DNA from: Candidatus Methanomethylophilaceae archaeon
GTDB lineage: Archaea; Thermoplasmatota; Thermoplasmata; Methanomassiliicoccales; Methanomethylophilaceae
Direction of reading: 5' to 3'
DNA: 64,000 nucleotides
Assembly (NCBI GenBank): GCA_017524805.1
Contig: JAFXUX010000006.1
Coordinates: 389 to 64,388 of the forward strand
Shown: positions 32,370 through 59,664 of the stretch, in pieces
How positions within the stretch are numbered: position 1 is the first letter of the stretch
How the letters are laid out: every line of letters starts with the position of its first letter
The notes under the pieces: generated by a model
Seen by the model: only the letters and a program-made list of their open reading frames with translations
Told to the model about the DNA's origin: nothing
Databases searched by the model: none
Program-made: the position numbers and the translations under genes

Positions 32370-32559
32370 GATTCCTTCCGCCTGCCTAGTTTGGCAGGCC
32401 CAAACTCCTTACCATTTCTAATCTCAATTATCGCGTCCCAGCTTCTATTAGAAAGGATAGTGCCTTATTCTATTTCATTTATGGATTATTTTATCATATT
32501 TGATTCATTTTAACATATAAAGAAACAGATAATAGCGTATAATTACTATAATTTATATG

Positions 32560-32810
32560 AGATGACGCCAGGGAGGAAGCCCAGTGTACAGGGGCTTCCG
32601 GCGTGCACTGGGCCCTGTCCTGAGCCATCGAAAGGAAGTGAAAAAATCTCCGAAGAGGGAAAGGACCGGGGTCAGACCACTAAACTCACCCTGGCCCTCG
32701 AGACGATCAGGCTGATAGCCGATCTTCTCCTGGCTGCCTTCCTTTGAAGAAGGCTTCAAACACCTTACGGCTTCCTTCGGGAGGCCGGCAAGGTTAGGTT
32801 AATATTGTCT
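32560..32810. ncRNA. candidate structured RNA (identity and strand unresolved)
   Basis: A GC-rich island lies between AT-rich spacers, in a gap between convergent genes. Perfect stems are 32579..32586/32606..32613 (gcccagtg/cactgggc), 32736..32741/32749..32754, and a cUUCGg-type hairpin at 32769..32786 (ggcttcc-ttcg-ggaggcc). A TATA-like tttatatga lies at 32551..32559. Confidence 0.3.
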
Positions 32811-32882
32811 GGCACAACCTTAATACTATCGTTTCAACGCATCAAATATTCAAATTCGTGAAGAACCGCGATTTCATAAAGG

Positions 32883-33788
32883 TCAGAAACGAATCGGAGC
32901 GATCGTTACGAGCCCTCTCATACGTTGCAATCGGAATCCAGCCCTGATTTTGGCCGCCAAATCGCCGACTTCCTCATCCGACATGGCGACAGTGGGGAAA
33001 AACACAGGGAGATCATATTTTGACGCGTCGAAATCCTCGAGATCGGAGATTCCTTTGCCTTGAATGTACGCCAACGCATATCTCACGTTCTTATCGTCAG
33101 CCATCCTCATCTCCGGATCGTAATTCCTCAGAGTCTCGAAGTCTCCCGGACCCCTGAATATGATTCTGCAGCCTCTCTTCATGGCCAGCCAGGCGGAGAC
33201 CAATCCGCGGTCGTCTTCCACATCGGCCACGACTTTGCCTTGGGTACCTATCGGGAGCCCGGAATGGCATTGAATAACCTCCTGGAAAATATACGCCTTG
33301 TTGTCCCTGACCTCGACGAAAAAGGTGACATCCGGGTTTTTGAGCTTGACTTTGATCCCCAGGCTTTCGTTCTCCAGGAAAATAGCCGATCCAGCTTCTC
33401 TGGCGACATCTATGCTGGTGTACGGATGGCTCCCGTCTCTGCGCGCATCGACCGCGAATGTCTGGCCCTGAGATAATCTTCCCTTGGAATAGGCGGCTGC
33501 TGTCCTGCAGATGTCTTCCATATCGGAAGAGCAGGTCTCCGCGACAGACATCGACGCCACGCCGAACACTTTCCTGGCGGATCTTATCGCTTTCTCGGAA
33601 TCATCGGTTTCTATGAAGATCCTGGCGCCTTTCTTGGTGACGAAAGCCTCCACCCCATCCTTAGCTAGCATCGCCATTATGTTTTCTCTGAGCTGATTCT
33701 CGAATCTTTTGCGGACCGGATCGCTTTTCAGCCCTATTTCCGAATATCTGAGGAGAAGAATCGTCACAGCCCGCCATGTAAGATTCAA
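32883..33788 (-). CDS. THUMP-domain ThiI-like protein lacking the PP-loop signature
   Basis: N-terminus LLLRYSEIGLKSDPVRKRFENQL (ThiI-like) and a THUMP region. VADVEDDRGLVSAWLAMKRGC sits where ThiI has LLSGGIDSPVAAWLMMKRG. 301 aa. Confidence 0.7.
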   Translation of the reverse strand: MNLTWRAVTILLLRYSEIGLKSDPVRKRFENQLRENIMAMLAKDGVEAFVTKKGARIFIETDDSEKAIRSARKVFGVASMSVAETCSSDMEDICRTAAAYSKGRLSQGQTFAVDARRDGSHPYTSIDVAREAGSAIFLENESLGIKVKLKNPDVTFFVEVRDNKAYIFQEVIQCHSGLPIGTQGKVVADVEDDRGLVSAWLAMKRGCRIIFRGPGDFETLRNYDPEMRMADDKNVRYALAYIQGKGISDLEDFDASKYDLPVFFPTVAMSDEEVGDLAAKIRAGFRLQRMRGLVTIAPIRF

Positions 33789-33972
33789 CCTTAAAACATA
33801 TCGTCCTTGGCCTCCAAAATTCCGATTCAGCCCTTGAGCGGATTCCGTCCCGCTCCAGCCTGCGATGCCATTATTGGTTTACAATCCGTCGTGGCCATTC
33901 CGTGTGGGCATCAGAGGGGCGCAAAAATGTTTGGCGGGAGCCGGCGGCTTTTAAATCGACCCCCGTTAAGCA

Positions 33973-35448
33973 TCATTCCTTTCCGCTATCCTCGGCGGCC
34001 TCGACGTCATCCTTCCCGAGAGTAAATGAATACGCTATGAGGATGGCGGTGACCGCAGCCATAATGGCGATAGACACCACGAATCCGTCGCTGAGAGAGC
34101 TGGCCGCGCTCTGGACGTCGTTCATGAGCTTCGCGGCCACCTCTTTCAGCACATTCTCAGCGACGGACAGGTCTATGGGAACCGAGACATAATTGCCCTG
34201 GGTTACCTCACTGATATACGACCCGACGATAGCATTCCCTACGAATATGCCCACCATGCGTATTGCCATGAGGTTGCCGGTATGCTGGCCCATGTCTTTC
34301 ACATCCGATACGCTCTGCAGAGCGCATATCAGCTGGTTCACGATGAATCCCAGGCCGAATCCGAACAGGAACAGGGAGATACCGAATTGCAGTATGCCCT
34401 GGCTGATGATAAAATGGGTGAGGATGAGTGCGGCAGTGACGATGGCCGATCCCGCGATGATCCACGGCCTGACTCCCGTCGAGAACACCTTGCGGCTTCC
34501 GATCATTGAGGGCACGGCTGCCCCGGCGATCAGCAGCCAAAACATGGCGCTCGCCTTGTATATATCGAACTCGTAGCACGTGAGATACATCTTGAAGAAA
34601 TACTGTATCAGACCGAGCCCGCATAAGCTGAATATGAACATCAATACGAGGACCTTCCTTTCGAACGGCGGAATCCTCACGGGTATGACAGGGCTCTCAG
34701 AGCGCTTTGCATGAGCCACCAAAGCGACCGCCCCGACGACGATCAGCCCGGCGATAGCGAACGAAGGGACGCTGATCAGATCGAAGTTGACGTTGACAAG
34801 CTGGGTATACACCGTCGCCGATCCGAAGACCAGAGCCGCGAGCGCCATCCCTACTATATCGGACTTCTGATGGGAACCCCTATCCTCCGGGAGGAATCTC
34901 CACGCAAGAGCCAGCCCTACCGCCACCATCAGCGAAAGGGCCATGAACCCGAGCCTCCAGTTGAAGTTCTCCGTGAGGAAATAGCCCGCAGCCGATCCGA
35001 ACAGCGAGCCTACGGCAAAGGACGCCGTCATCAGCTCGCTAACCTTGCCTCTCTTAAGCGTAGGATAAAACTTCCCTACTGCGGTGTACGCGAGCGCGAG
35101 GATGAGGCCTGCCCCTATCCCTTGGACGAACCTGAAAGCCACCAGCATCTCGACGGACACCGACAAAGCGCAGACCATGGAAGCCGCGATGAAAATCAGC
35201 GGAGCCACCGATAGCACGCGCCTTGCTCCGAACAGATCCGCCAGCTTGCCTCCCAGCGGGATCATGGCGACCTCCGAGACCACGTACGCAGGCACGATGT
35301 AATCGATGTTGGGCGATTTCGGGAGGTCTACGACGGACCAGACCATGCCGAACCTCATGAACATCCATCCCGCGGCTGCCGCAGTCAGACAAAGCGCAAG
35401 TCCCCACATCGCGAACGCGCGGTTCCTTTCCGATCCGGACATGCTCAT
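33973..35448 (-). CDS. MFS transporter (DHA2-like)
   Basis: Hydrophobic, ~14 TMS, GGKLADLFGARRV motif. The start is taken at MSMSGSERN (ATG 35448), which makes an ATGA overlap with the upstream gene. The ORF track starts at 35487. Confidence 0.8.
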   Translation of the reverse strand: MSMSGSERNRAFAMWGLALCLTAAAAGWMFMRFGMVWSVVDLPKSPNIDYIVPAYVVSEVAMIPLGGKLADLFGARRVLSVAPLIFIAASMVCALSVSVEMLVAFRFVQGIGAGLILALAYTAVGKFYPTLKRGKVSELMTASFAVGSLFGSAAGYFLTENFNWRLGFMALSLMVAVGLALAWRFLPEDRGSHQKSDIVGMALAALVFGSATVYTQLVNVNFDLISVPSFAIAGLIVVGAVALVAHAKRSESPVIPVRIPPFERKVLVLMFIFSLCGLGLIQYFFKMYLTCYEFDIYKASAMFWLLIAGAAVPSMIGSRKVFSTGVRPWIIAGSAIVTAALILTHFIISQGILQFGISLFLFGFGLGFIVNQLICALQSVSDVKDMGQHTGNLMAIRMVGIFVGNAIVGSYISEVTQGNYVSVPIDLSVAENVLKEVAAKLMNDVQSAASSLSDGFVVSIAIMAAVTAILIAYSFTLGKDDVEAAEDSGKE

Positions 35449-36833
35449 GCGGAGCGCCTCCTCATAAGTATCGCGGCGCCCAGACACCCGATCAGACCCG
35501 CGGTAGACATCGCGACATACTCTATCGGAATCTTCAGCTCGTATTCCTCATCGTATTTTATCATGGCATTGGTGTGCTCGTAGACGGCTTCGTACCTGCC
35601 TTTTGTCTCATCGTCCATCTCATCGACGTCGACGGTGCCCCATCCCAGCAGTATCGCGATGAGTTCGATGATGTCCTTGGCCCGTTCATCCAATATGTAC
35701 GACGGCACGAGCCTCAATATATCGCTGACCTCTATGCAATAGGCGGACTTGGGCAAGCGGAACGTCTCCCCGGCATCTCCTTTGACCTGCCTGAGCTCCA
35801 CGTATTCGTCGCCGGCCTCATCGGACACGTTGGACGCCTGGAATTCCGCCAGGTAATCGATGTCCTTTATCGTGGTGCCGGTCAGCGACTTAAGCGTCTC
35901 GACCAGATCCACTACCCTGCTGCCGGATTCGATTATATTCAGCACCAGATCTGGGAGCCTGCTCTTCAAAAGCCCTTCGATCCCTGCGAACTGAGAGACC
36001 ATGTTCCACAGGCCGCTCGCCAGATCCGACGAAACAGTGATCTCGTCGATATGCTGGGTCATCTTGGGGCTGATGCTCCAAGACTCCCTGCTGTCGAAGA
36101 TCTTCATCCCCTCGTAAGTGAGGCCCATCCCCATGCTGACATAGAAATTGCTGTATGACACGCTGTTTCTGTATTGGATGGTCACCTCATCGAGAACCCC
36201 GTCGCTGTCCTCCGCCGTAGAGACATCGAAATCTCTGCTCTCATACTCGACGACGAACAGCTTGGCGAACACATCGCTGCGGACCATCTCTCCGGTCACC
36301 GTGTCTATCTCGGTGGAGATATCCACATCCACGTATATGCAGAACTGCAAGCTCAGATCGATGTCGCGAGGATCCGGCGAGGCGCTCCCCTTCAATATCC
36401 TTTCCAGGAAGCTTTCCTCGTCCTCCCCCTCCTGCCTCTGATAGGTGCCCTCCTCAGGCATATTCCCATGGGCTCCGGCGGCGGTTACGAACTCTATGTA
36501 AGCGGACACGTGGTCATCGATGAGATAGCTCGTCCCGACTGTCCGCACATCCCTCTTGGTGGCGAACTCACCTTCGAAATGCGGTTCGGACAGCCTGAGC
36601 TCAAACCCCAGCTGGCTCTCGGAAAAATCCATTATCAGTTCCTCAACGGATTTCCCGGTCATCTGCTCGCTTATCTTTTCAACCTCGGTCCAAGAGAATC
36701 CCATGGCCGTCCCGTAAGTTCTGTCGGAGACGTCCGCGCCGGCTTCTTCAAAGGAGATCGGAAGGCACGTGACCGCCAGCAGCAATGCTATAGCAAATGC
36801 TGAAGCGGCCCTCGCTTCATTTTTCATAGACAC
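35445..36833 (-). CDS. hypothetical acidic surface protein (signal peptide plus C-terminal TM anchor)
   Basis: N-terminus MSMKNEARAASAFAIALLLAVTCLPIS. C-terminus YVAMSTAGLIGCLGAAILMRRRSA. D/E-rich. I recognise no family. Confidence 0.6.
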   Translation of the reverse strand: MSMKNEARAASAFAIALLLAVTCLPISFEEAGADVSDRTYGTAMGFSWTEVEKISEQMTGKSVEELIMDFSESQLGFELRLSEPHFEGEFATKRDVRTVGTSYLIDDHVSAYIEFVTAAGAHGNMPEEGTYQRQEGEDEESFLERILKGSASPDPRDIDLSLQFCIYVDVDISTEIDTVTGEMVRSDVFAKLFVVEYESRDFDVSTAEDSDGVLDEVTIQYRNSVSYSNFYVSMGMGLTYEGMKIFDSRESWSISPKMTQHIDEITVSSDLASGLWNMVSQFAGIEGLLKSRLPDLVLNIIESGSRVVDLVETLKSLTGTTIKDIDYLAEFQASNVSDEAGDEYVELRQVKGDAGETFRLPKSAYCIEVSDILRLVPSYILDERAKDIIELIAILLGWGTVDVDEMDDETKGRYEAVYEHTNAMIKYDEEYELKIPIEYVAMSTAGLIGCLGAAILMRRRSA

Positions 36834-36976
36834 GCGATAACTGATTGGTGTTTAAGGATGCGCGTCAGTTATGCAAAAAATAGCCCATTCCTCCGATGGA
36901 ATGAGAGAAATTGCGAATAACGCCGGAACAGGATGGATTCAGAAATGATATAATAGTCTCGACCATACGCAGGAGC

Positions 36977-37798
36977 ATGGAAGCGCTCATTCTGTTGGGT
37001 CTGCTGGCGACCGGATCGGCCGCCGGGATACTTGGAGCGCTGTTCGGGCTCGGAGGCGGGTTCATCTTCGTTCCCGTCCTGATGCTCGCATTCGGATTGG
37101 CTCCCGCAGAAGCTGTTGCCGTGAGTCTTATCGGCATAATTGCGGGATCTGTGGGCGCATCCACCGTATTCGTCGACAAAGGCGCGGCCAACGTGCGCTT
37201 GGGACTGCTTCTGGAAATAACCACTGCAGCGGGGGCGATAATCGGCGCGCTGATTGCCGGGCTGCTTGAGGATTGGATTCTGATGTGCATATTCTCGGCC
37301 GTGGTCCTTTACAGCGGCATGAGGATGGCCCTGAACCCCGAGAAGGTCTTGGAGCCCGCCGAAGGGTCGGATGGCAGATTCGTCTTCTCTTATGAGGGCG
37401 ACAGCGGGAAAGAAGTGAGATATGAAGTGCAGAACATGAAAGGCGGGATGGCCCTGTGCACGGCTGCCGGCATGATTTCCTCGATGACCGGAGTCGGCGG
37501 AGGCGCAATCAAAGTCCCGCTTATGAACCTGTACATGCATGTGCCGATCAAAGCGGCGAGCCCCACCAGCAGCTATATGATCGGCATAACCGCTTTCTCC
37601 GGGGCAATCACATATTTCCTGTCAGGGACAGTCCTGCTGGAATACGCCGCTGGAATCGCGATAGGAGCTTTCGCCGGGTCTCTCGCGGGTACAGCCCTCT
37701 CAAAAAGAATACATGCCAAGCATCTGAGGAAATACTTCTCCGTTCTGCTGTTCGTCGTCGCAGTATTGGTCCTTCTGCAGGCTGGAGGCATATTATGA
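36977..37798 (+). CDS. TauE/SafE (DUF81) anion exporter family membrane protein
   Basis: MEALILLGLLATGSAAGILGALFGLGGGFIFVPVLML, with the second-half repeat GVGGGAIKVPLMNL. Confidence 0.8.
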   Translation: MEALILLGLLATGSAAGILGALFGLGGGFIFVPVLMLAFGLAPAEAVAVSLIGIIAGSVGASTVFVDKGAANVRLGLLLEITTAAGAIIGALIAGLLEDWILMCIFSAVVLYSGMRMALNPEKVLEPAEGSDGRFVFSYEGDSGKEVRYEVQNMKGGMALCTAAGMISSMTGVGGGAIKVPLMNLYMHVPIKAASPTSSYMIGITAFSGAITYFLSGTVLLEYAAGIAIGAFAGSLAGTALSKRIHAKHLRKYFSVLLFVVAVLVLLQAGGIL

Positions 37799-38393
37799 AT
37801 CTTAACAAGACCACCGCGAGGACGCTTCGCGTTGGGATCATCATAGGAATGGCGTTGATAGCCATAGGGCTGATTCTGTCGGCTTTGGGATACGGGAATT
37901 CGATGCTCAGCGCGGGGATTCTGATCCTGATAATATCCCCATTGGCCGGCGTCATCGCTTCGTTCGCTGCCCTGGCGACGGAAAAAGATTGGTTCTGGGC
38001 ATCGATAGCGGCCATCCTGCTAGCGATCACCGTCGTCGGGATGGTTTTGGCTGCTCTCCGATGGTTTCGCCCGCCCAGATCGGCGCAAGAATGGGAAACG
38101 TCAGGTCGAGCGCTCCCTCCCTCGTCATGAGATTGATCGTCAAATTTTCTGACGCGGGCCAGAATGGCCTCGGATCCCTTGGGCACAACCAAATCTAGAT
38201 CCTTCATCATCTCATAATTCTGGCAGTATTCTATGCGCCTCTTTTCCTTATAATCCAGATAGAATTTGAGGGCGTCATTTACCAGTTCCGCGATGGTCTC
38301 CCCTTGGAGGACGCGTTCTTCCTCCAGCCTTTTCCTTAGCACAGTACTGATTTTGACCGAGATTTGGACTGATGTCTGTCCTGCAGCACCCAT
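37608..38393 (-). CDS. ribbon-helix-helix (CopG-like) protein, 3' end uncertain
   Basis: The first ~90 aa (VQISVKISTVLRKRLEEERVLQGETIAELVNDALKFYLDYK…) look like an RHH domain. The rest of the 261-aa ORF is antisense to the DUF1634-like gene and not protein-like. No stop occurs before 37608. Confidence 0.4.
   Translation of the reverse strand: MGAAGQTSVQISVKISTVLRKRLEEERVLQGETIAELVNDALKFYLDYKEKRRIEYCQNYEMMKDLDLVVPKGSEAILARVRKFDDQSHDEGGSARPDVSHSCADLGGRNHRRAAKTIPTTVIASRMAAIDAQNQSFSVARAANEAMTPANGDIIRIRIPALSIEFPYPKADRISPMAINAIPMMIPTRSVLAVVLLRFIICLQPAEGPILRRRTAERRSISSDAWHVFFLRGLYPRETRRKLLSRFQRRIPAGLSLTGNM
37795..38130 (+). CDS. small membrane protein (DUF1634-like TauE partner)
   Basis: MNLNKTTARTLRVGIIIGMALIAIGLILSALG…. 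ATGA overlap with the TauE stop. Read from the distal part of ORF 37456..38130. Confidence 0.55.
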   Translation: MNLNKTTARTLRVGIIIGMALIAIGLILSALGYGNSMLSAGILILIISPLAGVIASFAALATEKDWFWASIAAILLAITVVGMVLAALRWFRPPRSAQEWETSGRALPPSS

Positions 38394-38511
38394 ACAATTC
38401 GTTATGTACCTGTAATACTAAATTTATATCCAGTCAAACATGGTGCATATGAATTCTGTATCAATCAAATAATAGGTTATACAATCCATCCAACCTAATA
38501 AGAATAAACTA

Positions 38512-40321
38512 ATTAACGAGTTCCCAACGAGCCGTATAGTCAGTTGACAGGATTCTTTTTAGGCCTCCCCCTAGGCCTCTTAGGCTTCTCTTCGGTGCCC
38601 GTTTTCTTAGGTCTTCCACGCTTCTTCGGAGCGACCGGTTCGGGGCCTTTGGACAATCCCAGCTTCTCCATGGTCTCATGGACATTGGGAAGCGTATGCA
38701 CCCAAGCGCCGTCCGAACGGGACGGCGCCTCGGGTCCATCCACCCTCCGCCATGCGGATGACAGGTCGTCCATGAGGTCCCTGTACGAGGCCTCCTCCAG
38801 GAGCTTCGTCTCGGTGAACCGCCTGATTATCCTGCATGTGATTATCGTCGCGATGCTGTTGATGAACTCGCTGCCCCGCACGGAGAAATCGCCCTGGACC
38901 CTGATGTCGTCCAGGCCCTCGTCATTCTTGTAATAGTTGAAGACCAGCTCCAGGAGCCATCTGTCGTCGTAGCATCTGTACGCCGTCTCGCAGTCCATAT
39001 CGAGATCGGATTCGAACACGATCGTCCCGAAGTTCCTGTCCTTCTTCGAATATTTCTGATAATCGAAGGACTTCTGGGTGCTCCTCCTGCCCAGGTAGGT
39101 CATCTCCTCCAGGGATGCCTTGTACGGGTCCTTGAAGGCATAGAGGAACATGCCGCCCTGTATGCGGCGCTTCCTGTAGAGCACCTTATGCTCGGTGTTC
39201 TCCAGTATTCCCTCGAAATCCAGCATGTCGTTGTTCGTTATGCGGATGTCGTTGCGCTTTATAGGAGTGAGGAAATGGAGCTGGGGGCGGTCCCCCAGCT
39301 CCTCCCTTATCCTGCTGGGAGGGAACCCCTTGTCGGCTATGATGATGCCTTTCCGGATGTCGTTGTCGCGGATGAAATCCGAGTATGCGACGGCGTCTAT
39401 GCAGTTACCCGGGAACACCTCGGCACATATGGGCTCCATCCTCTCGACGTCATAGGCATAGATGACTGAAACGTCCTTGGTGCCCTTCACCCTCGACTTG
39501 TATGAAAAATCCGAAAGGTCGTTGACGGTGCTGTTATCAGTCTTCAGTGTCCCGTCGATGGCCACATGATGCGTCTCGGCCACTGCCTTGATGCGTCTGG
39601 AATAGAACTCCTTGCGCTTGGGCCCGTTCATGCCCAGCAGCTGATGGAGCCCGCATACGCTGTTCTTGGAGATCGCCAGGTCGGGGTAGAATACGCTGGC
39701 GAACGTCCTCCTGTAATGGGTGGACAGGCGATTATCGGTCACATGCGGTATCGCCACCCGCAGGGCGGCGATGGCCATGATCTGATATCCCGCATCGATA
39801 CCGTAGACGTCCAGGAGGTCGTTAAGGATGTCATCGGATACCGACCTTACCAATGCCAGTGCACCGAACGACAGTTCCTGTGGCTCAGATCCGGAGAGAT
39901 CCGATACGGGAACGAACCTCCCGTTGTGGATGTATCCGATCACCTCTCCGTTGACAGGCTGAGGGTTGTGGCCGGGAACGTAGATGACCTTCTTGCGCGA
40001 CCTCACGGCGTACCTCTTCCTTCCGTCGCCGCCATTGTCGACGACGACGGTGTTGCTCGGTCTCGGGACCTTCCTGATTTCCTCCGGCACTCCCATAAAA
40101 TCCCCCTAAATATAGTATTTATTCTATATTTCAGTACTATATATTAACATTTTTGCCTGTCATTATTCAAAGATTACGGACCCCGTCCATCACTTCGATT
40201 GCCGGAAGAATCCTGAAAAGGCCGACAGGATCGAACAATAAACGTTACTTCAGCCCAAAACAGGCCCGAAATACACTGATTCTCAGAGGGATATAGTACG
40301 GCTCGTTGGGAACTCGTTAAT
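38512..40321 (-). mobile_element. intact insertion sequence, IS4/IS1634-type (~1.81 kb)
   Basis: 25-bp perfect terminal inverted repeats (38512..38536 attaacgagttcccaacgagccgta, 40297..40321 reverse complement) bracket a single DDE transposase ORF. Confidence 0.88.
38540..40096 (-). CDS. DDE transposase (IS4 family, IS1634-like) with two C-terminal AT-hooks
   Basis: D (HVAIDGT), D (IIADKGF), and Y-2-R-3-E-6-K signature YDDRWLLELVFNYYK. The C-terminus is KKRGRPKKTGTEEKPKRPRGRPKKNP. Confidence 0.9.
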   Translation of the reverse strand: MGVPEEIRKVPRPSNTVVVDNGGDGRKRYAVRSRKKVIYVPGHNPQPVNGEVIGYIHNGRFVPVSDLSGSEPQELSFGALALVRSVSDDILNDLLDVYGIDAGYQIMAIAALRVAIPHVTDNRLSTHYRRTFASVFYPDLAISKNSVCGLHQLLGMNGPKRKEFYSRRIKAVAETHHVAIDGTLKTDNSTVNDLSDFSYKSRVKGTKDVSVIYAYDVERMEPICAEVFPGNCIDAVAYSDFIRDNDIRKGIIIADKGFPPSRIREELGDRPQLHFLTPIKRNDIRITNNDMLDFEGILENTEHKVLYRKRRIQGGMFLYAFKDPYKASLEEMTYLGRRSTQKSFDYQKYSKKDRNFGTIVFESDLDMDCETAYRCYDDRWLLELVFNYYKNDEGLDDIRVQGDFSVRGSEFINSIATIITCRIIRRFTETKLLEEASYRDLMDDLSSAWRRVDGPEAPSRSDGAWVHTLPNVHETMEKLGLSKGPEPVAPKKRGRPKKTGTEEKPKRPRGRPKKNPVN

Positions 40322-40496
40322 CGATCATTCTGTTCATATCATCGGTCGTATCCGCACTGACGTAAAGCCACCCTTCGCCAACATCCATCTCGATCCGACT
40401 GCTACGGTCTGCGGTTGATTCGTATTTCAGCCCGATGATATCATTCACATCGAAAAGTGCATTCATTAGAGATGCCTCATTTCTTTTCCGATTCAT
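40317..40496 (-). CDS. small ORF (59 aa) whose stop codon lies inside the IS terminal repeat
   Basis: My translation is MNRKRNEASLMNALFDVNDIIGLKYESTADRSSRIEMDVGEGWLYVSADTTDDMNRMID-taa. It is below the ORF-track cutoff. Confidence 0.3.
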   Translation of the reverse strand: MNRKRNEASLMNALFDVNDIIGLKYESTADRSSRIEMDVGEGWLYVSADTTDDMNRMID

Positions 40497-40590
40497 CTGG
40501 ATCCGTCTGGATAGATGGGTTCATGCCCGAAGAATATCTCCCTTTCTTCCATCGCATCCTCCACCATCTTCCTGATCATAGGTTCGGCTT

Positions 40591-40788
40591 TCAGAACAGC
40601 TTCAGTCCGTTGATCTTCTTGATCAGTCCGGCATCTACGAATCTGTAGTAAGCATCCCAGAGTCTGCTGTCATCGGCATTCTCCACATCGCCGATGTCCC
40701 TGCTCCTTTCGATGTACTTCCCCTGGTTCAGCTCCCTGAACTCGTCAGATTGCCTCTTTTCTGGGGCAACTTCTGACTCTCTTTCCAT
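40591..40788 (-). CDS. small hypothetical protein (65 aa)
   Basis: ORF-track entry MERESEVAPEKRQSDEFRELNQGKYIERSRDIGDVENADDSRLWDAYYRFVDAGLIKKINGLKLF. It lies immediately downstream of tRNA-Leu. Confidence 0.35.
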   Translation of the reverse strand: MERESEVAPEKRQSDEFRELNQGKYIERSRDIGDVENADDSRLWDAYYRFVDAGLIKKINGLKLF

Positions 40789-40892
40789 GAGTTTTTCACT
40801 CCGTCATCCGGACGATTTTGAGGACGATTCCGATGCTTTCGCTTGTGCAACGAGCGCATTGCACCGAAACTAATGTCTGGCTAGTGAAAAAG

Positions 40893-40980
40893 TGGTGCAA
40901 GGGAAGGGATTTGAACCCTCGAACTCCTACGAGAATAGGCCCTGAACCTATCTCCTTTGGCCAGGCTCGGATACCCTTGC
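40893..40980 (-). tRNA. tRNA-Leu (anticodon CAG), class II, CCA encoded
   Basis: Reverse complement reads GCAAGGG-TA-TCCGAGCCTGGCCAAAGGA-GATAGG-TTCAGGG-CCTATT-CTCGTAGGAGTTC-GAGGG-TTCAAAT-CCCTT-CCCTTGC-A-CCA, with a long variable arm. Confidence 0.85.
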
Positions 40981-41030
40981 ACAGGATGAGAACCACCATT
41001 CTTTGCTTGTATTTCAATATTGTTACTGGC

Positions 41031-41255
41031 TCAGGAGTTGTCCTTCATGATCTTCATCCAGCCACCAGACTCGTAGATGGCAAGACCCCTTTTGCTCAGA
41101 AGAGCTTCGAATTCCTTCCAGGAGATAACCTCGAGCCTGTCGTTGTAGCCTTTAGTGAACTGAACGCCTTCGGTTCCCTTCACCTTTCCGGGTTTCAACC
41201 CTTTGTTCTTGGCTATTGTCTGGGCTTTTTTGATTGATATGCGTTCCATGGACAT
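41031..41255 (-). CDS. small hypothetical protein (74 aa)
   Basis: MSMERISIKKAQTIAKNKGLKPGKVKGTEGVQFTKGYNDRLEVISWKEFEALLSKRGLAIYESGGWMKIM. Basic N-terminus. I recognise no family. Confidence 0.5.
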   Translation of the reverse strand: MSMERISIKKAQTIAKNKGLKPGKVKGTEGVQFTKGYNDRLEVISWKEFEALLSKRGLAIYESGGWMKIMKDNS

Positions 41256-41438
41256 CCTTAGGTCACAGTATCATATCGCTAAATATCATATAAAAAACAT
41301 TGTCAAAACAAGAAAAATCTGGCAATTCAATGGAATAGTGCCAGTATCAAATATTATAGATATCTGGATTAATAATCCAATTTAAACGCATCCATGATGA
41401 CCGCAACCCATATCAATGTCAGTGCGTAAAAGGTTGGC

Positions 41439-42749
41439 ATGCCTGAAAGAATGGGTCTCGTTCTGCGCTCCGGACCGGGCGCGGCCGTGACCACGGAGAT
41501 GGGGATCGAAGTCGGCCGCGCCCTGGCCGCAGAGCACAAGCGCGTGGCGGTCATCTCAGACGACATGAGGAGCACCCGCATGATGAAGGAGGCGCTTATA
41601 TCTGGGATTCTGTCCCAAGGCGCGGACGTCTTGGATTGCGGAAGCGCCACGGAAGCCGCCGCCGCATACGCCGCAAGGCTCGCAGATTGCTCGGCTTACG
41701 TCTCGGAATGCCCCACCTACGGAAATGCCAGCGGATACAGGCTGTTCGGCAGGGACGGAAGGCAATTCACGGAATCCCAGATCAGGCGTTTGGACTCGAT
41801 CCGCGATAACTTGGTGACCCCAAACCACATGGGACTGGGGAAGAGGATCCCATATGTCAACGCCGTCTCCGACTACAATTCGTTCGCGTCCTCCCGCATC
41901 GGGAAAATATCTGGGGCCCCAGTTCTCCTGGACTGCGGATGCGGCATAGCGTCCGAATCCGCCCCGCAGGTGCTGGAATCCGTCGGCATAGAGGTCATTT
42001 CGGTGAATTGCCACCGCAGCAGGGATTTCGTGCCGAAAGACCCTTCAGCAGAGGCCCAGCAGTTCGGATGGCTGCACGATCTGATCTCCAACAAAGAGGG
42101 ATGCATAGGCATCGGCATGGATCGCATCGGGTCCCGCGCCACCGTCATCGGCGAGGACGGGAACATCATAGACCATGCGTCGGCGTCCGCTCTGGCAGTG
42201 AGATCGGCCGCCCCAAAAAGCATCGTCATGTCGATGAATGTGACATCGAGGGTGAAGGATGAATTCCTTAAGAACGGCGGGGACCCAGAGATGATCTACA
42301 TGGCACCCATGGGGACAGCCGATGTGGCCGCCGTGATGGCCGAGAAAAATGCCGACATGGCCGTATGCGACGCCGGGATCATGTACAGCGGAATCCCCGC
42401 GCTGGACGGCATCCGCACCGCCGCGGCCATATCGAAGCTTGCGAACAGCGGAAGCCTCAAGAAAATGGCCGAAGACGTCTCCACCCTTAGGGACATCTCA
42501 TCGATCAAGGTCGACAATAATCCCGGCGCGTTCGACAGAGGGATGGAAACAGCCCTCTCCGGAAGGGAGGGGAAAATCTTCGTCTGCAAGGATGGGTGGA
42601 GAGTCGACATGGACAAGGGATGGGTCCTGATCCGCAAGCCGAAGGAAGGCGTCTGCAGAGTTTCCGCAGAATCCCCGGACAGCGCATATCTGGCCGGCCT
42701 CCTGGAAACCGGAGCCGATATGGTCAGAATCGCGTCCAAATCTCAGTAA
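41439..42749 (+). CDS. alpha-D-phosphohexomutase-fold protein (GlmM/PMM-like) with degenerate catalytic motifs
   Basis: Four-domain length (436 aa) and collinear blocks. SECPTY replaces TASHNP, GMDRIGSR replaces DGDGDR, and IRKPKEGV replaces RPSGTEP. Confidence 0.7.
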   Translation: MPERMGLVLRSGPGAAVTTEMGIEVGRALAAEHKRVAVISDDMRSTRMMKEALISGILSQGADVLDCGSATEAAAAYAARLADCSAYVSECPTYGNASGYRLFGRDGRQFTESQIRRLDSIRDNLVTPNHMGLGKRIPYVNAVSDYNSFASSRIGKISGAPVLLDCGCGIASESAPQVLESVGIEVISVNCHRSRDFVPKDPSAEAQQFGWLHDLISNKEGCIGIGMDRIGSRATVIGEDGNIIDHASASALAVRSAAPKSIVMSMNVTSRVKDEFLKNGGDPEMIYMAPMGTADVAAVMAEKNADMAVCDAGIMYSGIPALDGIRTAAAISKLANSGSLKKMAEDVSTLRDISSIKVDNNPGAFDRGMETALSGREGKIFVCKDGWRVDMDKGWVLIRKPKEGVCRVSAESPDSAYLAGLLETGADMVRIASKSQ

Positions 42750-43114
42750 ACGATCTCCAGATCCAGGACGTTGCCATCGGAATCGTACGCCCTCCAGCTC
42801 CGGCGGTCGTAGGGCTGGCAGGTTATTATGTGGACGCCGCCCATGTTGCGGAAATAATCCAGGTCGGCGTCCGACGCTTGGTTGGAATAACCCGGATGGG
42901 AGTGAGCGGAACCGGCGATGCTGTAATCTATCGGGGCCATCCATTGGTTCAGGAAGCTGTGGCTGTCCCCGTAGACCGTCCCGGGAAGGATGATCATCTC
43001 CGAGATTATGCCGTCTATCTCGCGGGTCATGCACAGGAACTCGTCCGGATAGGTTGACCTAGCCGCGTCGTTCAGACCGTCTATGAAATCCACATCGACC
43101 CCGGTTATCTTCAT
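42743..43114 (-). CDS. JAB1/MPN (JAMM) metalloprotease
   Basis: The distal 123 aa of ORF 42743..43411. JAMM motif AHSHPGYSNQASDADL (HxHx7Sx2D). ATGA overlap with the upstream NAD kinase gene. Confidence 0.8.
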   Translation of the reverse strand: MKITGVDVDFIDGLNDAARSTYPDEFLCMTREIDGIISEMIILPGTVYGDSHSFLNQWMAPIDYSIAGSAHSHPGYSNQASDADLDYFRNMGGVHIITCQPYDRRSWRAYDSDGNVLDLEIVY

Positions 43115-44721
43115 TCCCCGTTCACCAGCTTCTCGCGGACGCGCGAATAGAAATCGTCGTTGAAACGTATCAGACGGGCTTTCTTGGATGACATCATGAA
43201 CTGCACGGAGGTCCCGCCTTCCATCTTCACCTCGCTCTGGCCGTCCAATACAATCATGCAGCCTCTGTCGAGAACGTTCTCCACCGTTATCTTGGAGGTC
43301 GCCGGGACCAGGAACGGACGGGAGGTGTACTTGTAAGGGGCCATGGGAACCACCAGCATCGCCTCGACGTGGGGATCCATGTACGGCGCCCCGAGGCTCA
43401 TTGCATAGCACGTCGATCCCGTGGGAGTGGATACGACTATCCCGTCCGCGCGGAAATCAGCCGCCAGAACATCGTCCACGTAAATGCGGTAATGGCGGAT
43501 CTTCGCGACGGTATCGGTATGCACCACGGCCTCGTTCACGGAATCCGGGAGATATTCCCCGCCATACCTGGTGGCTATCTTGAAGCGGGTATCCACGGCG
43601 TAATCCCCCGACAGGAGACGGGTTATGCCCTCTTTGATGTGGTCGCGGTCTATCTCGGCGAGGAATCCGACGCTTCCGCCGTTTATGCCGATTACCAACG
43701 CATCGTTGTTCTGCATAGCTCTGAGAAGAGTCCCGTCCCCTCCGATGACGATGACGATGTCCGCGTCCATATCTTTCAGTGGAGTGCCCTGGATGCCGAG
43801 GACCTTCGCTATGCCGCTGTCCACGATGTAATCCTGGCCCTGCAGCGCATCCAAGACCTGGCGCGTGTATTCGGCGGCGTTGCTCACCGAGACGTTAGTG
43901 TATACGCCATAGGTCAGACCGTCATGCGGGAGTATGTCGTTCTTCATGGCGTAGTCGTAGACTTTCTTGTCCCCGACGGCCACGAAATTGGATCTGCGGT
44001 CGAGATCGAATGGCATATCCATCGGGTTCCCGCCCAAGTCGTAAATCTCGCCCCCGGCCTCCTTCAGGATTATGTAGCTCGCCGCGATGTCGACCACCCT
44101 TATCGCGCGGAAATAATTCCTAGAATTCATGTAATAGCCATCGGCCTCCCCTTCGGCGACGATGGCCATCTCCAGGGAAGCGCATCCGAACGAGCGGGAG
44201 GACTTCACCCTCCGCGCCAACGCAGCTGATTCGGGAGCGGCGCTGTTGCCCTGGTATATCATCATGAAGAGCTCGCTCAGATCGGCTTTGCGGACATGGA
44301 TGGGCTTCCCGTTCTTGTAGGCGCCTTTCCCTTTCTCCGCCCACATCTCGTCGCCGGTGGCCAGATTGCGAAGATAGCCGACGTAGATGTCGGAAAGGGC
44401 GGATTTCCCCACGGCGAGGGACACCGTGTAATATGGGATCGAGGCGATGGCGTTCGATGTCCCGTCTATTGGGTCGATGACGAGGGTATCCTCGAACCCG
44501 TTGTCGACGAATCCTATCTCCTCGCTGAGGATGTTGACCGGGATGCCGGAGCGCTCTATGAACATCATCGCGGCGTTCTCGGCTATCTTGTCGATCTGCG
44601 ACGTGGGAGTCCCGTCGGCTCCCATGCACACCTTCTCCCTTTTGGATGCGGAATCCGGGATCAGGGCAATCGCGTCCCGGACCGCGTCAGCGATGCCCGA
44701 AAGCATCTCGACCGTAATCAT
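43111..44721 (-). CDS. bifunctional inositol-monophosphatase-family NADP phosphatase / NAD kinase
   Basis: N-terminal half has LVIDPIDGTSNA and other IMPase motifs. C-terminal half has IVIGGDGTLLRA and STPTGSTCYAMSLG (NAD kinase). This fusion type is known from Methanocaldococcus. Confidence 0.9.
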   Translation of the reverse strand: MITVEMLSGIADAVRDAIALIPDSASKREKVCMGADGTPTSQIDKIAENAAMMFIERSGIPVNILSEEIGFVDNGFEDTLVIDPIDGTSNAIASIPYYTVSLAVGKSALSDIYVGYLRNLATGDEMWAEKGKGAYKNGKPIHVRKADLSELFMMIYQGNSAAPESAALARRVKSSRSFGCASLEMAIVAEGEADGYYMNSRNYFRAIRVVDIAASYIILKEAGGEIYDLGGNPMDMPFDLDRRSNFVAVGDKKVYDYAMKNDILPHDGLTYGVYTNVSVSNAAEYTRQVLDALQGQDYIVDSGIAKVLGIQGTPLKDMDADIVIVIGGDGTLLRAMQNNDALVIGINGGSVGFLAEIDRDHIKEGITRLLSGDYAVDTRFKIATRYGGEYLPDSVNEAVVHTDTVAKIRHYRIYVDDVLAADFRADGIVVSTPTGSTCYAMSLGAPYMDPHVEAMLVVPMAPYKYTSRPFLVPATSKITVENVLDRGCMIVLDGQSEVKMEGGTSVQFMMSSKKARLIRFNDDFYSRVREKLVNGE

Positions 44722-53640: not shown

Positions 53641-53881
53641 CAAACTGCTTGCTTCTTCGCACTTCTAATTACTGTGACAAGGTCGGAATCGATAAGACGA
53701 TGGAAGCGTCAGCGTGCAACGATTCCTGCTGGATCGCGGACCCGCAAAGAGATCTTGACGGATGCCTATGACCGCGGCATCGAAGAAGCTGTTACGAACA
53801 GCCGATATTAGTCGAAAAGATTACGTAATATTACGTGATTTTTTCATTATGCGGATCGAAAGGCCAATCCACCTCCAATAA

Positions 53882-55147
53882 TTGATCGACCGCCGCGATA
53901 ACGGTCTGATCAAAGTCATAACAGGGGTCCGCCGCTGCGGAAAAACGTACCTCGTCGAGATACTGTTCAGAGATTGGCTGATTGAAAATGGCGTGGATCC
54001 CAAAAACATCATATTCATATCGCTTGAAACGGGCCTTAATGCCCATCTCAGAAATCCCCTTACGCTTTCAGAGCACATTCACGACGCGATTGGCGGCTCC
54101 GACTCCAGAAAATACGTGATTATAGACGAGATACAGCTTTGCGCCAGCGTGGACAACCCATACCTTCCCCCAGAATCCCGCACTATAGAGAACATGATGA
54201 CGTTCTATGACGTCGTCTTAGGTCTGAGAGAAAAATGCGACATTTATGTCACCGGAAGCAATTCAAAAATGCTTTCCAAAGATGTCCTCTCCAGTTTCAG
54301 GGGCAGAACGGACGAAATACCCATAATTCCCCTGTCATTCTCTGAATTCCACTCTGCCCTCAGAGGGGACGTCAGGTCGGATTGGATGGAATGCCTCTAC
54401 CATGGAGGAATGCCTGGAACACTGCTATATCATGATGCCCCGTCCAAAAACAGGTACCTATCAAGTCTGTTCAATGAGATCTACCTCAAAGATATTCAGG
54501 AACGCTATGGAATCCATGGCATCGACGATCTGTCAGCGATCGTTGATGTTCTCGCCTCATCATCCGGAGGGTTGGTTAACCCGCAGAAAATCGCTGACTC
54601 CTTCCGGGACAGGAGCGTCAGCAGGAACACCGTGGCCAATTATATAGAGCATCTAGAGGACTCTTTCCTGATATCCGGATCCATGCGCTTCGATATCAGA
54701 GGGAGGAGGCACATAAACGGCCTAAAAAAGTATTATTTCACGGACGTGGGGCTGATGAACGCCAGACTCAATTTCAGGGAGATGTCGCGTGCAAAGCTCA
54801 TCGAAACCGTGGTGCATAACGAATTCCTGCTTCGTGGATGCAACGTAGATGTCCGAAGAATAGATGTCAGAAGAAGAAACGAAGAGGGAAAATCTGCGAT
54901 CATATCTCTGGAAATAGATTTCGTCGTCAACAGATCGTTCGATAGGGCTTACATACAAGCGGCCATGGGAGTGGATGACCCAGGAAAAATGGAGCAAGAG
55001 ACCAGATCGCTGAAGGCCATCAAGGATGGCTTCGCAAAGATCCTGCTGATAGATTCCGACGTCCCAGAGCATGTCACCGAGGATGGCATCAGGGTGATGT
55101 CCATCATAGATTTCCTGCTCGACGAGGGCTCCCTGAGATTCAACTGA
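53882..55147 (+). CDS. AAA ATPase with DUF4143-type C-terminus (COG1373-like), N-terminus interrupted by TAA
   Basis: VITGVRRCGKTYL (Walker A), VIIDEIQ (Walker B). The frame is continuous with ATG 53849 (MRIERPIHLQ) except for a taa at 53879..53881. A TTG follows directly at 53882. Confidence 0.78.
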   Translation: MIDRRDNGLIKVITGVRRCGKTYLVEILFRDWLIENGVDPKNIIFISLETGLNAHLRNPLTLSEHIHDAIGGSDSRKYVIIDEIQLCASVDNPYLPPESRTIENMMTFYDVVLGLREKCDIYVTGSNSKMLSKDVLSSFRGRTDEIPIIPLSFSEFHSALRGDVRSDWMECLYHGGMPGTLLYHDAPSKNRYLSSLFNEIYLKDIQERYGIHGIDDLSAIVDVLASSSGGLVNPQKIADSFRDRSVSRNTVANYIEHLEDSFLISGSMRFDIRGRRHINGLKKYYFTDVGLMNARLNFREMSRAKLIETVVHNEFLLRGCNVDVRRIDVRRRNEEGKSAIISLEIDFVVNRSFDRAYIQAAMGVDDPGKMEQETRSLKAIKDGFAKILLIDSDVPEHVTEDGIRVMSIIDFLLDEGSLRFN

Positions 55148-55264
55148 AAAAATCGCGTAATTATACAGATATTTTGAAACGCGGTGCATAGTCATATTTT
55201 AAATAGGGATTGCCCATAGCCACTGACAGCCTCGCCGCATAGATATGATTCGGAGGATCAGACT

Positions 55265-55720: not shown

Positions 55721-58039
<2,319 letters not shown>

Positions 58040-58123
58040 GGCCGATGGAAAGCCAGCGCCGTTATTATATCCTGCCCCCGGAACGACGTGTGCTGCCATA
58101 GATAGAACCGATCGGATGCTTTG

Positions 58124-58174
58124 TTTAACGCGATAAAACTTTTTGATTTTGAAAGTTTTATAGCGTTAAATTGC
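58124..58174 (+). repeat. 51-bp hairpin-forming element, copy 1 (upstream of the ATPase gene)
   Basis: tttaacgcgataaaactttttgattttgaaagttttatagcgttaaattgc. The 18-nt arms 58125..58142 and 58152..58169 pair 17/18 around a 9-nt loop. Confidence 0.9.
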
Positions 58175-58185
58175 ATTTTAGAACT

Positions 58186-59412
58186 ATGCTTGAGCTCAGG
58201 AGAGAGAAATACCTTTCCAGGATCCGCCCCTTTTACAAAGATACGGACATCATCAAAGTGCTGACCGGGGCCCGCAGATGCGGCAAATCCACCATTTTGA
58301 GGCAGATCATCGACGAGCTCCGCGAAGAAGGCGTAGATGGCCGTTCATTGGTATACCTAGATCTGGACAGCAAAAAATATCTCAGCGTCAGAACGTCGGA
58401 TGCTCTGGAAAAGCTGATCGATTCGGGATTCGGGGATTGCCAAAGCGGCAGATACCTCTTCATCGATGAGATCCAAAATGTCAGAGACTTCGAGCCGCTG
58501 ATCAATGCGTATCGCAACGACGGAGTCTCCGTGTTCATAACTGGCTCCAATTCTTATCTGCTAAGCGGAGAGCTGGTGACCAAACTCACGGGAAGATACG
58601 TGGAATTCAGGATTTCCACGTTCTCTCTGAGCGAAGTCAGAGAATTCTATCGGATAAACGGCATGGCTTTCACCCCGTCAGAAGCGTTTCAAGACTATCT
58701 TCTGAACGGAGGATATCCCAAGAGCTTCGAATATGCCGATCAAGACAGCAAATCGCTGTACATCCGCTCAGTAATCGATGAGACGATAGAGAAGGACATC
58801 CTAAGGAGCAAAAAGGTCAGAAACAGGGCTCTGATGGGAAAACTTCTCGATTATATTCTTTCGACGCCGGGCGCGGAGATATCTTCCACATCCATAGCCG
58901 ATTATCTGCGCTCCGAACGCATGATGACGACCCCGAACACTGTGAACGGCTATCTGGATCTGATATTCTCCAGCAAACTGGCGGACAAGTGCGTTCGCTT
59001 CGATATCTTCGGAAAGAAAGCCCTGAAAACCCATTACAAATCATACGTCGCCGACATATCCCTCCACACATCTTATCCCAATGTCAGGCGCGACCTGAAA
59101 ATGGGGCATATCCTGGAGAATATAGTCTTCAACGAGCTCAGATCCAGGGGATACGACGTCCAAGTCGGAAAACTCAGGGACATAGAGGTAGATTTCGTCG
59201 TCTCGAACAGGAAGGACATCGCCTATATCCAAGTGACATACCTGATGGCATCTCCTGAGACGGAAGAAAGGGAAGAACGCCCTCTCCTGAAGATAGAAGA
59301 CAACTATCCAAAATACATCATATCCATGGATCCGATAGCCATCGACCGCAAGGGAATCAAAAGATTGCGTCTGGTGGAAGATTTCTTGTTGGGAGATGGA
59401 TTCAGATTTTAA
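58186..59412 (+). CDS. AAA ATPase with DUF4143-type C-terminus (COG1373-like), paralog of 53882..55147
   Basis: MLELRREKYLSRIRPFYKDTDIIKVLTGARRCGKST…LFIDEIQ. ATG 58186 is preferred over the TTG at 58171, which lies in the repeat. The stop TAA 59410..59412 lies inside repeat copy 2. Confidence 0.8.
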   Translation: MLELRREKYLSRIRPFYKDTDIIKVLTGARRCGKSTILRQIIDELREEGVDGRSLVYLDLDSKKYLSVRTSDALEKLIDSGFGDCQSGRYLFIDEIQNVRDFEPLINAYRNDGVSVFITGSNSYLLSGELVTKLTGRYVEFRISTFSLSEVREFYRINGMAFTPSEAFQDYLLNGGYPKSFEYADQDSKSLYIRSVIDETIEKDILRSKKVRNRALMGKLLDYILSTPGAEISSTSIADYLRSERMMTTPNTVNGYLDLIFSSKLADKCVRFDIFGKKALKTHYKSYVADISLHTSYPNVRRDLKMGHILENIVFNELRSRGYDVQVGKLRDIEVDFVVSNRKDIAYIQVTYLMASPETEEREERPLLKIEDNYPKYIISMDPIAIDRKGIKRLRLVEDFLLGDGFRF

Positions 59413-59458
59413 CGCGATAAAACTTTTTGATTTTGGAAGTTTTATAACGTTAAATTGC
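59408..59458 (+). repeat. 51-bp hairpin-forming element, copy 2 (downstream of the ATPase gene)
   Basis: tttaacgcgataaaactttttgattttggaagttttataacgttaaattgc. It matches copy 1 at 49 of 51 positions. Confidence 0.9.
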
Positions 59459-59587
59459 GAAACATCTGGGAGATGCGTTCCGGTTGCGGCGATATTCCCA
59501 TGAAAATGACGGACGGATTCCACCCTTAACCTGCACATATCCAGCAACAACAACGATTATATAGTACCAATTAATGCACCATTCATC

Positions 59588-59664
59588 GGACTCGTGGTCT
59601 AGATGGTTATGACGTCGCCTTGACATGGCGGAGGTCGCCGGTTCAAATCCGGCCGGGTCCACCA
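59588..59664 (+). tRNA. tRNA-Val (anticodon GAC), CCA encoded
   Basis: Acceptor GGACTCG/CGGGTCC. Anticodon loop TTGACAT between cgcc/ggcg. T arm gccgg-TTCAAAT-ccggc. Then A-CCA. Confidence 0.85.

Follow-up and report, generated by a model that had tools for sequence, protein, structure and literature searches.

Paired gene-specific palindromes at the borders of a PDC-S01 candidate defence gene in a Methanomethylophilaceae archaeon

Why should a single ATPase gene stand between two almost identical palindromes, the first just ahead of its start codon and the second laid across its stop codon? The question is posed by a locus in a stretch of DNA of 64,000 nucleotides (nt), hereafter the window, from Candidatus Methanomethylophilaceae archaeon (assembly GCA_017524805.1, contig JAFXUX010000006.1; genome G000 here, other genomes and loci being given G and L handles). 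The gene encodes a member of PDC-S01, a candidate defence family, and its flanking palindrome copies are called hp1 and hp2 in their order along the forward strand. A sequence-only reading had likened the arrangement to a cassette bounded by integron attC sites. The comparisons below point instead to a palindrome that belongs to the gene, and we put at about even the chance that its two copies are a selected pair of cis-elements, a promoter-operator and a 3' border element, probably bound by the winged helix of the gene's own product.

The direct repeat was borne out as described, the two 51-nt copies (Table 1) agreeing at 49 positions; of 100 dinucleotide-shuffled versions of the window, none contained two such matches. 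As had been claimed, both copies are imperfect palindromes with a loop of 9 nt, but the arms measure 19 nt rather than the 18 nt first given, with one mismatch in copy 1, whose arms are 95% complementary, and two in copy 2. Single-strand folding of both copies, on either strand, gives z values of -4.2 to -6.8 against shuffles, and the stem on both strands is a continuous run of 19 pairs, free of bulges and containing a symmetric mismatch of 1x1 in copy 1 or 2x2 in copy 2. The reported placement of the gene also holds: the ATG at 58186 lies 14 nt past the GTTAAAT (58165-58171) of copy 1, and the TAA stop codon falls within the TTTTAAC (59407-59413) of the left arm of copy 2. In G000 the loop and the 5 nt past the palindrome are identical between hp1 and hp2 as well. 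Contigs of two other studies (X4 records 2 and 4; X5 records 10 and 15) run from kae1 through copy 1 into the gene, and copy 2 is likewise spanned; since independent studies bridge the arrangement, the repeat layout is not an assembly artefact. A genome-wide check for further 51-nt copies, as the earlier reading had proposed, returned three in all, each beside a gene of the PDC-S01 type: two bracket the one gene, and the third, on contig 44 of G000, directly precedes the ATG of a paralogous gene fragment. An Rfam scan of the region gave the tRNA as its sole match.

The palindrome is found with the gene wherever the gene can be compared. A related palindrome stands 14-40 nt before the ATG in all 13 orthologous loci with a visible 5' region, two gene remnants included; these orthologues share 51-79% protein identity, lie in other neighbourhoods and in some cases are without a downstream copy. 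The core pattern of the palindrome occurs in five of the 261 genomes of the order, all of one genus. A second palindrome is present at, or within 4 nt of, the stop codon in G000, L053/G155, L055, L269/G166 and the metagenome contigs L250 and L178, and the orthologues that keep it are 60-79% identical to the present protein. In the four genomes with both copies the variable bases of the arms are equal within a genome and differ between genomes (CGCG, GGGT, CGAT), and in three of the four, G000 being the exception, hp1 and hp2 have similar arms and different loops. When 19 hairpins were aligned, 84% of cells could pair and nine of the 19 pairs had changed on both sides. The observed covariation was reached by none of 500 shuffles, and slid registers were only 36-53% paired. 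The second copy is recurrent, not a one-off, and these alignments speak for its being under selection.

Some of the orthologous loci are themselves of note. In the remnants L049 (G164) and L284 (G007:C33) the middle of the gene is gone, with the upstream palindrome and both coding ends kept; the remnant L050 (G165) retains the upstream palindrome and at least the first 13-30 nt of coding sequence. The orthologue in G022 (L021, approximately 2254-2256; G022:C9) reads TAG in frame at a codon that is GAG (Glu) in G000, and may be a pseudogene or contain a read-through or pyrrolysine codon. A generic repeat, such as a miniature inverted-repeat transposable element, was considered and rejected. The loose core pattern, common by chance in AT-rich DNA, has at least 120 metagenome and 77 viral matches, and nearly none lies beside the gene (two of the metagenome matches listed, both at the same gene, and none of the viral ones).

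This layout belongs to the gene family as such, with a gene-specific palindrome preceding the start and a second copy at, or within 18 nt of, the stop. In a self-comparison of G000, repeats of 40-51 nt that are at least 95% identical and lie 1-2 kb apart form just two pairs, both of them around PDC-S01 paralogues. When 1198 open reading frames (ORFs) of G000, each of at least 200 aa, were scored for upstream/downstream repeats, the top two scores (45 and 38) were those of PDC-S01 paralogues, followed by 22, with a 99th percentile of 12. A third G000 paralogue, in the window (53882-55147), has a weaker repeat pair. Sampling the archaeal family with one locus per genome gave 29 loci, 26 of them evaluable, and eight of these reach a score of 17 or more, where the null never exceeds 12; six of the eight repeats are palindromic or partly so, and they sit from -40 to -70 of the start and from -9 to +16 of the stop. 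In G165, five of the 14 copies examined score at least 16, each with its own, different palindrome. In a mostly bacterial sample, 10 of 69 evaluable loci (80 in all) score at least 17; the null there has its 99th percentile at 12 and its maximum at 22. Homologues were sought in the genome contigs with a single protein as the query.

The flank repeats of the bacterial relatives are mixed, those of L123 and L066 being specific to the gene flanks and that of L106 multi-copy or tandem, and treating them as one phenomenon was rejected as they differ in kind. At L123 the two upstream segments are repeated downstream in swapped order (A-B-gene-B'-A') and are absent elsewhere in that genome. An archaeal PDC-S01 gene, L383, has on its two sides, at -200 and +195, 37-nt repeats that resemble the 3' end of a tRNA. 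Of 223 plasmid records with a homologue, 171 are from Acinetobacter. Plasmids were considered as a source of exact borders or dif-type modules, and no flank palindromes were seen in five plasmid loci (L418-L422); in four of these the gene immediately precedes genes of BREX type, a WYL regulator and DUF1819, and in the fifth it lies between two IS6 copies. Within the archaeal family, 51 of 61 genomes have at least one PDC-S01 match, and G165, G130 and G115, archaea of 1.6-2.0 Mb, have 29, 26 and 21 respectively. Best pairwise identity among paralogues is 36-56% for the 14 G165 copies and 31-36% in G000.

What kind of protein does the gene encode? Pfam identifies AAA_14 (2.9e-30) and DUF4143 (1.4e-12), both past the cut-offs, and the PADLOC model for PDC-S01 (PDLC04787) is matched over its full length (residues 4-402, E 2.7e-126), as it also is by all six other paralogues in the genome. 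No match was obtained by sequence search against solved structures, nor in NCBIfam, and Pfam finds no transposase family in the ORF. The AlphaFold model has a pLDDT score of 91; its closest folds are the archaeal AAA+ ATPases 2qen and 2fna, STAND Apaf-1/CED-4 and Orc1/Cdc6, and the nearest solved folds cover residues 1 to approximately 260, that is the AAA+ domain plus winged helix. Modelled separately, the C-terminal 144 residues (pLDDT 91.5) give weak but consistent matches to Bax1, McrC, Card1/Can2, NucS and Hjc (E 2e-3 to 0.1). These agree with the assignment of DUF4143 to the PD-(D/E)xK superfamily in PMC3424549. From the model, the winged helix is a plausible DNA-binding module for the palindrome. 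In PMC12988326 and PMC13356809, PDC-S01 is portrayed as a single-gene, patchy and very abundant family that has often moved between domains and is plentiful in Archaea and in the rumen; a defence role is there said to be pending validation (PMC12988326). According to 10.1101/2024.01.29.577857, the PDC candidates owe their definition to genes lying inside BREX, DISARM and type I restriction-modification loci.

The sequence-only reading placed the ATPase unit between kae1 and tRNA-Val, as gene positions confirm (Table 1), and considered that it might be a single-gene insertion with att-like duplication. The insertion is upheld by relatives in which the spacer is without the gene; the duplication is not, the empty sites having no palindrome copy. 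Among 15 same-genus relatives measured together the kae1/tRNA-Val spacer is ATPase-free and of 58-354 nt in 13, and of 599 nt in one. With G002 and G009 added, none of the 17 relatives examined has either this ATPase gene or the palindrome in the spacer. The spacers of G014 and G002 hold a different PDC-S01 subtype on the opposite strand, and that of G009 two GGDEF-like genes. These other inserts, and the lack of a palindrome in empty sites, indicate that the spacer is a variable spot and that the repeat is not a duplicated target. The G155 locus likewise has empty counterparts, palindrome-free. In all three comparisons of filled with empty sites, 85-170 nt of unrelated DNA lie between the palindromes and the conserved flanks, so that the inserted segment exceeds the unit. 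The ATPase gene is, on this comparative evidence, best described as a horizontally acquired insertion in a variable spacer. Targeting of tRNA genes by insertions of the family was rejected: a tRNA lies within one of 12 further family loci scanned, or two of 13 if the tRNA-Val of G000 is counted.

Table 1. Features of the window discussed in the text (positions from the first nucleotide of the window)
Feature	Position	Strand	Remarks
Second PDC-S01 paralogue of the window	ORF 53882-55147	+	Palindrome 53814-53846; diverged partial copy 55145-55166, starting in the stop codon
kae1 (TsaD/Kae1 family), left neighbour	57056-58039	-	Open frame continues to 58099
hp1 (palindrome copy 1)	58124-58174	none	Arms 58124-58142 and 58152-58170, 9-nt loop
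BRE/TATA-like box, right arm of hp1	58152-58163	+	AAAG + TTTTATAG; centre 26.5 nt before the A of the ATG; read from sequence
PDC-S01 candidate defence gene, 408 aa	58186-59412	+	AAA_14 ATPase (ORC/STAND-like), winged helix, DUF4143 C-terminal domain of predicted PD-(D/E)xK fold
hp2 (palindrome copy 2)	59408-59458	none	Overlaps TAA 59410-59412; T5 run 59424-59428
Spacer from hp2 to tRNA, 129 nt	59459-59587	none	First ~85 nt without counterpart in relatives
tRNA-Val(GAC), right neighbour	59588-59664	+	Rfam

Several further observations concern these neighbouring features. The start of kae1 is probably not at 58099 but at 58039, where the frame reads MITLGIEG as in relatives, and a TATA-like box of tRNA-Val lies near 59557. 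The kae1 gene has an in-frame TAG at 57683-57685 (minus strand), a position occupied in 16 relatives by Leu (13), Gln (2) or Val (1). The genome encodes PylS (252.9 bits, cut-off 178), so this codon may stand for pyrrolysine; it is covered by contigs of two other studies, and no other letter is among the differences shown. In G002 the spacer subtype (L043, 833-947) is preceded by four tandem 23-nt repeats, of which G006 (L018) has three and no gene. The original start of the second paralogue of the window is apparently gone: directly after the palindrome comes an ATG at 53850, but its 10-codon frame is closed by TAA, with a TTG restart of the long ORF at 53882.

How might two copies of one palindrome serve one gene? 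An archaeal TATA box lies approximately 26 nt before the transcript start. The position of the box in the right arm of hp1, which resembles a B recognition element (BRE) followed by a TATA box, fits the promoter of a leaderless mRNA, and from this position promoter use may be inferred. The favoured reading, to which the even chance given above applies, would then run as follows. The 1335 bp from 58124 to 59458 would constitute one self-contained, horizontally acquired PDC-S01 unit, and the two 51-nt copies would be its lineage-specific, dyad-symmetric control element, used twice. While hp1 would overlap the core promoter, with the leaderless mRNA that this implies, hp2 would mark the 3' border, the stop codon lying inside its left arm and the T run after it. 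Selection would keep both copies and would keep them alike, most likely because both are bound by a single sequence-specific factor, for which the winged-helix domain of the gene's own product is the best candidate. Such a factor could repress the gene at its promoter, with hp2 acting as a second operator, a roadblock or a terminator, and the pair would insulate a potentially toxic nuclease gene wherever it is inserted, as in the kae1/tRNA-Val spacer, which the unit would have reached by horizontal insertion. Binding and regulation are, like promoter use, suggested by position. The alternative offered by the sequence-only reading itself, a promoter or terminator palindrome duplicated along with the gene, comes close to this scheme.

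Not everything is accommodated by a selected pair, and four sets of facts weigh against it. The second copy is missing from G022, L054/G148 (where the stop codon is also lost), L056, L057/L272/L273 and G164, that is from about half of the orthologues with a visible 3' flank, and hp2 is therefore dispensable. In G000 the identity of the loop and of the 5 nt beyond is explained by a recent duplication, or by gene conversion, no less well than by selection. A TATA-like centre or a T run is not present in every palindrome of the family, so that a single role for all of them is not evident. Finally, the locus has features of a mobile unit, with sharp homology borders, a promoter-like box in the left repeat, the stop codon in the right one and internal-deletion remnants (G164, G165, G007:C33).

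The last of these leads to the alternative that survives best, which we consider unlikely: that a self-mobile unit has in the palindromes its terminal recognition sites, at which the ATPase-nuclease would bind and cut so as to move the 1.3-kb unit, in the way that a transposase works on terminal repeats. The layout resembles that of an insertion sequence, one ORF filling the unit, and each paralogue has an end sequence of its own, matched at both ends. DNA homology between loci begins at the outer edge of the upstream palindrome (L053 positions 838-841, nine loci), as it does for the C3-type paralogue (578-580, repeat start 581) and the L398 type (451-458, palindrome start approximately 457; four genomes of four genera), and homology between G000 and G155 ends at the outer edge of hp2. 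However, at a coding identity of just 69-83% neutral flanks could not be aligned in any case, and sharp borders are then the expected limit of selection and no proof of exact ends. The unit is present or absent in otherwise syntenic spacers, yet the 85-170 nt of unrelated DNA outside the palindromes recurred in each filled-versus-empty comparison and no consistent target-site duplication was found at the unit borders. Remnants that are internally deleted retain both gene ends, and the third copy abuts a truncated asparagine-synthase-like gene; the right end, on the other hand, is missing in half of the orthologues. Up to 29 copies occur in a 1.7-Mb genome, and none is near-identical to another within its genome, at the paralogue identities given above for G165 and G000. 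The predicted nuclease fold of the C-terminal domain would suit the idea, as would the definition of the family from genes embedded in other defence operons (10.1101/2024.01.29.577857). No joint skipping the 1284 nt between copies was seen in contigs of four runs, a weak negative since contigs drop rare forms; a joint of 58039 to 59587 in X5 contigs belongs to a relative with another spacer.

Carried further, the same facts might make the paired-palindrome clade of PDC-S01 an autonomous selfish element, in which an ORC-like ATPase-nuclease uses the border palindromes to excise, copy or insert itself. We think this improbable; were it true, it would explain both the frequent embedding of the gene in other operons and the many diverged copies in so small a genome.

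A possible vehicle is suggested by the surroundings of the third copy. An orthologue adjoins fragments of asparagine-synthase-like genes in two metagenome contigs as well as in contig 44, and such fragments look like attachment-site debris of integrated elements. On contig 44 of G000, the 5' part of an asparagine-synthase-like gene is found three times within the region 32300-44700 (L003, L040, L042), at 32334-32879, 39237-39417 and 43476-44030, and two tyrosine-recombinase fragments lie between these copies, a pattern that resembles nested integrated elements each bringing a replacement gene start. The third hairpin and an ATPase fragment of 61 aa, cut by a DDE insertion sequence, are at the left edge of this region.

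A neutral origin of hp2 is, in our estimate, similarly doubtful. In this account hp2 is a scar, left either by tandem duplication of promoter and gene, joined at TTTAA with loss of the second gene, or by recent conversion of hp1 to the 3' end. It draws on the near-identity of the copies through the loop and 5 nt beyond the palindrome, and on the TTTAA that the gene's native end GATTTTAA, as in G164, has in common with the palindrome start. A possible parallel is the bacterial L106 flank repeat, present in six copies in its genome, three of them approximately 1.6-1.7 kb apart on one contig in the manner of a tandem array. A neutral scar would decay, however, and the second copy has conserved arms: it recurs in orthologues of 60-79% identity, whose loops are no longer alike and whose arm bases co-vary. 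Moreover, five of 14 (G165) and six of 26 (archaeal family) members examined show this layout with palindromes of unrelated sequence, and no convincing remnant of a second gene follows hp2. A match of 15 in 19 positions between 59467-59485 and the 3' end of the gene was tried as such a remnant; being marginal (p approximately 0.04 for the unit's end and 0.09 for the whole unit), it was not used. These points favour the selected pair over a scar.

What, then, of the integron comparison with which the locus was introduced? The broader proposition, a very unlikely one, is that a recombinase encoded elsewhere moves a cassette with hairpins at its borders; this could be an integron integrase using attC-like sites, a Y1 transposase using subterminal hairpins or a Xer-type recombinase using dif-like sites. 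The proposition has in its favour the hairpins at both borders, the report of integrons in archaeal metagenome-assembled genomes (10.1101/2022.02.06.479319; PMC9024848) and nine tyrosine-recombinase matches in the genome, none of them on the window's contig; that the window has no integrase was correctly stated from the start. The core motifs were only in part as supposed: the GTTTAAC and GTTAAAT of copy 1 fit both patterns, but the TTTTAAC of copy 2 begins with a pyrimidine and fails RYYYAAC. Across 19 related hairpins both cores occur together in one, R'' (RYYYAAC) in two and R' (GTTRRRY) in six. A folded attC site carries extrahelical, or bulged, bases, and tyrosine-recombinase crossover needs identical crossover regions. 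The present stems are bulge-free, and three of the four two-copy genomes have loops that differ between hp1 and hp2. The best match to the integron integrase model TIGR02249 in the genome, which is 98% complete, scored 24.1 bits against a cut-off of 265, and Y1 (HUH) transposase (PF01797) has no match in the genome; an element of the IS200/IS605 type was rejected on this ground and on that of just three hairpin copies. PMC9024848 describes attC sites as having boxes of the R and L kinds with an unpaired central spacer, and has integron cassettes mostly promoterless with attC at the 3' end. Here the palindrome holds a promoter-like box and goes with the 5' end of the gene, and the three genomic copies accompany one gene type, no other cargo being found among the metagenome and viral matches counted above. 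By the earlier reading's own test, relatives having the ATPase and no flanking repeats speak against a cassette, and such relatives exist (G022, L054). The likeness to an attC-bounded cassette was accordingly abandoned: there is no integron integrase, the core is not conserved, the stems have no bulge and the palindrome stands at the gene's 5' end.

Insertion with a long target duplication, in which the repeats are a duplicated piece of the recipient site as proposed for restriction-modification genes, can almost be dismissed: some bacterial relatives do have flank repeats of 54-158 nt far from start and stop, but the repeat is absent both from empty kae1/tRNA-Val spacers and from the empty counterparts of the G155 locus, and the palindrome travels with the gene to other loci.

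The locus matters beyond its own genome. PDC-S01 has been ranked among the most abundant candidate defence genes of prokaryotes, its function untested by anyone, according to PMC12988326 and PMC13356809. A conserved gene-specific palindrome at both borders offers a concrete, testable handle on the family: if the protein binds the palindromes, the recognised sequence is known beforehand for each paralogue. Regulation could be tested with reporters, and cleavage, excision or circles at the palindromes would separate a defence gene from a selfish element. There is also a warning for annotation: a single gene between two hairpins that match attC cores by chance is not an integron cassette.

Set beside known systems, the gene resembles PDC-S01 in its full-length model match, its AAA_14 and DUF4143 domains and its place in COG1373. 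It differs in the flanking palindromes, which go unmentioned in those parts of the PDC-S01, COG1373, DUF4143 and guilt-by-embedding literature that were available, the main text of 10.1101/2024.01.29.577857 included and supplements apart.

With the integron cassette the locus shares a single gene between two hairpin-forming imperfect palindromes, the first of which fits both cores; unlike a cassette, it has no bulges or unpaired central spacer, no arrays and no other cargo. The element, at 47-51 nt, is also shorter than attC sites are known to be.

In insertion sequences the terminal repeats co-evolve with the transposase, with the promoter in the left end and the stop codon in the right one. 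Compactness (1.3 kb, a single ORF), element-specific matched ends, insertion polymorphism and internal-deletion remnants are all reminiscent of them. However, the present unit has no transposase fold, target duplication or identical copies, and its ends are full palindromes in direct order, the right one missing in half of the orthologues.

Orc1/Cdc6 binds inverted repeats that adjoin its own gene. Together with 2qen and 2fna it resembles the modelled AAA+ domain and winged helix (residues 1 to approximately 260), but the present protein has a predicted nuclease-fold domain at its C-terminus and there is no sign of a replication-origin function. McrBC too joins an AAA+ NTPase with a restriction-endonuclease fold, and McrC is a weak fold match (E 7e-3); here the two parts make up a single chain, and its ATPase belongs to the ORC/STAND type and is not McrB-like.

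Lastly, autoregulated defence and toxin genes, for example those governed by the C-protein boxes of restriction-modification systems, have a palindromic operator over the promoter. The likeness is in a gene-specific dyad covering the predicted core promoter of a potentially toxic nuclease gene, and it is the second operator copy, at the stop codon, that takes the present arrangement outside the known pattern.

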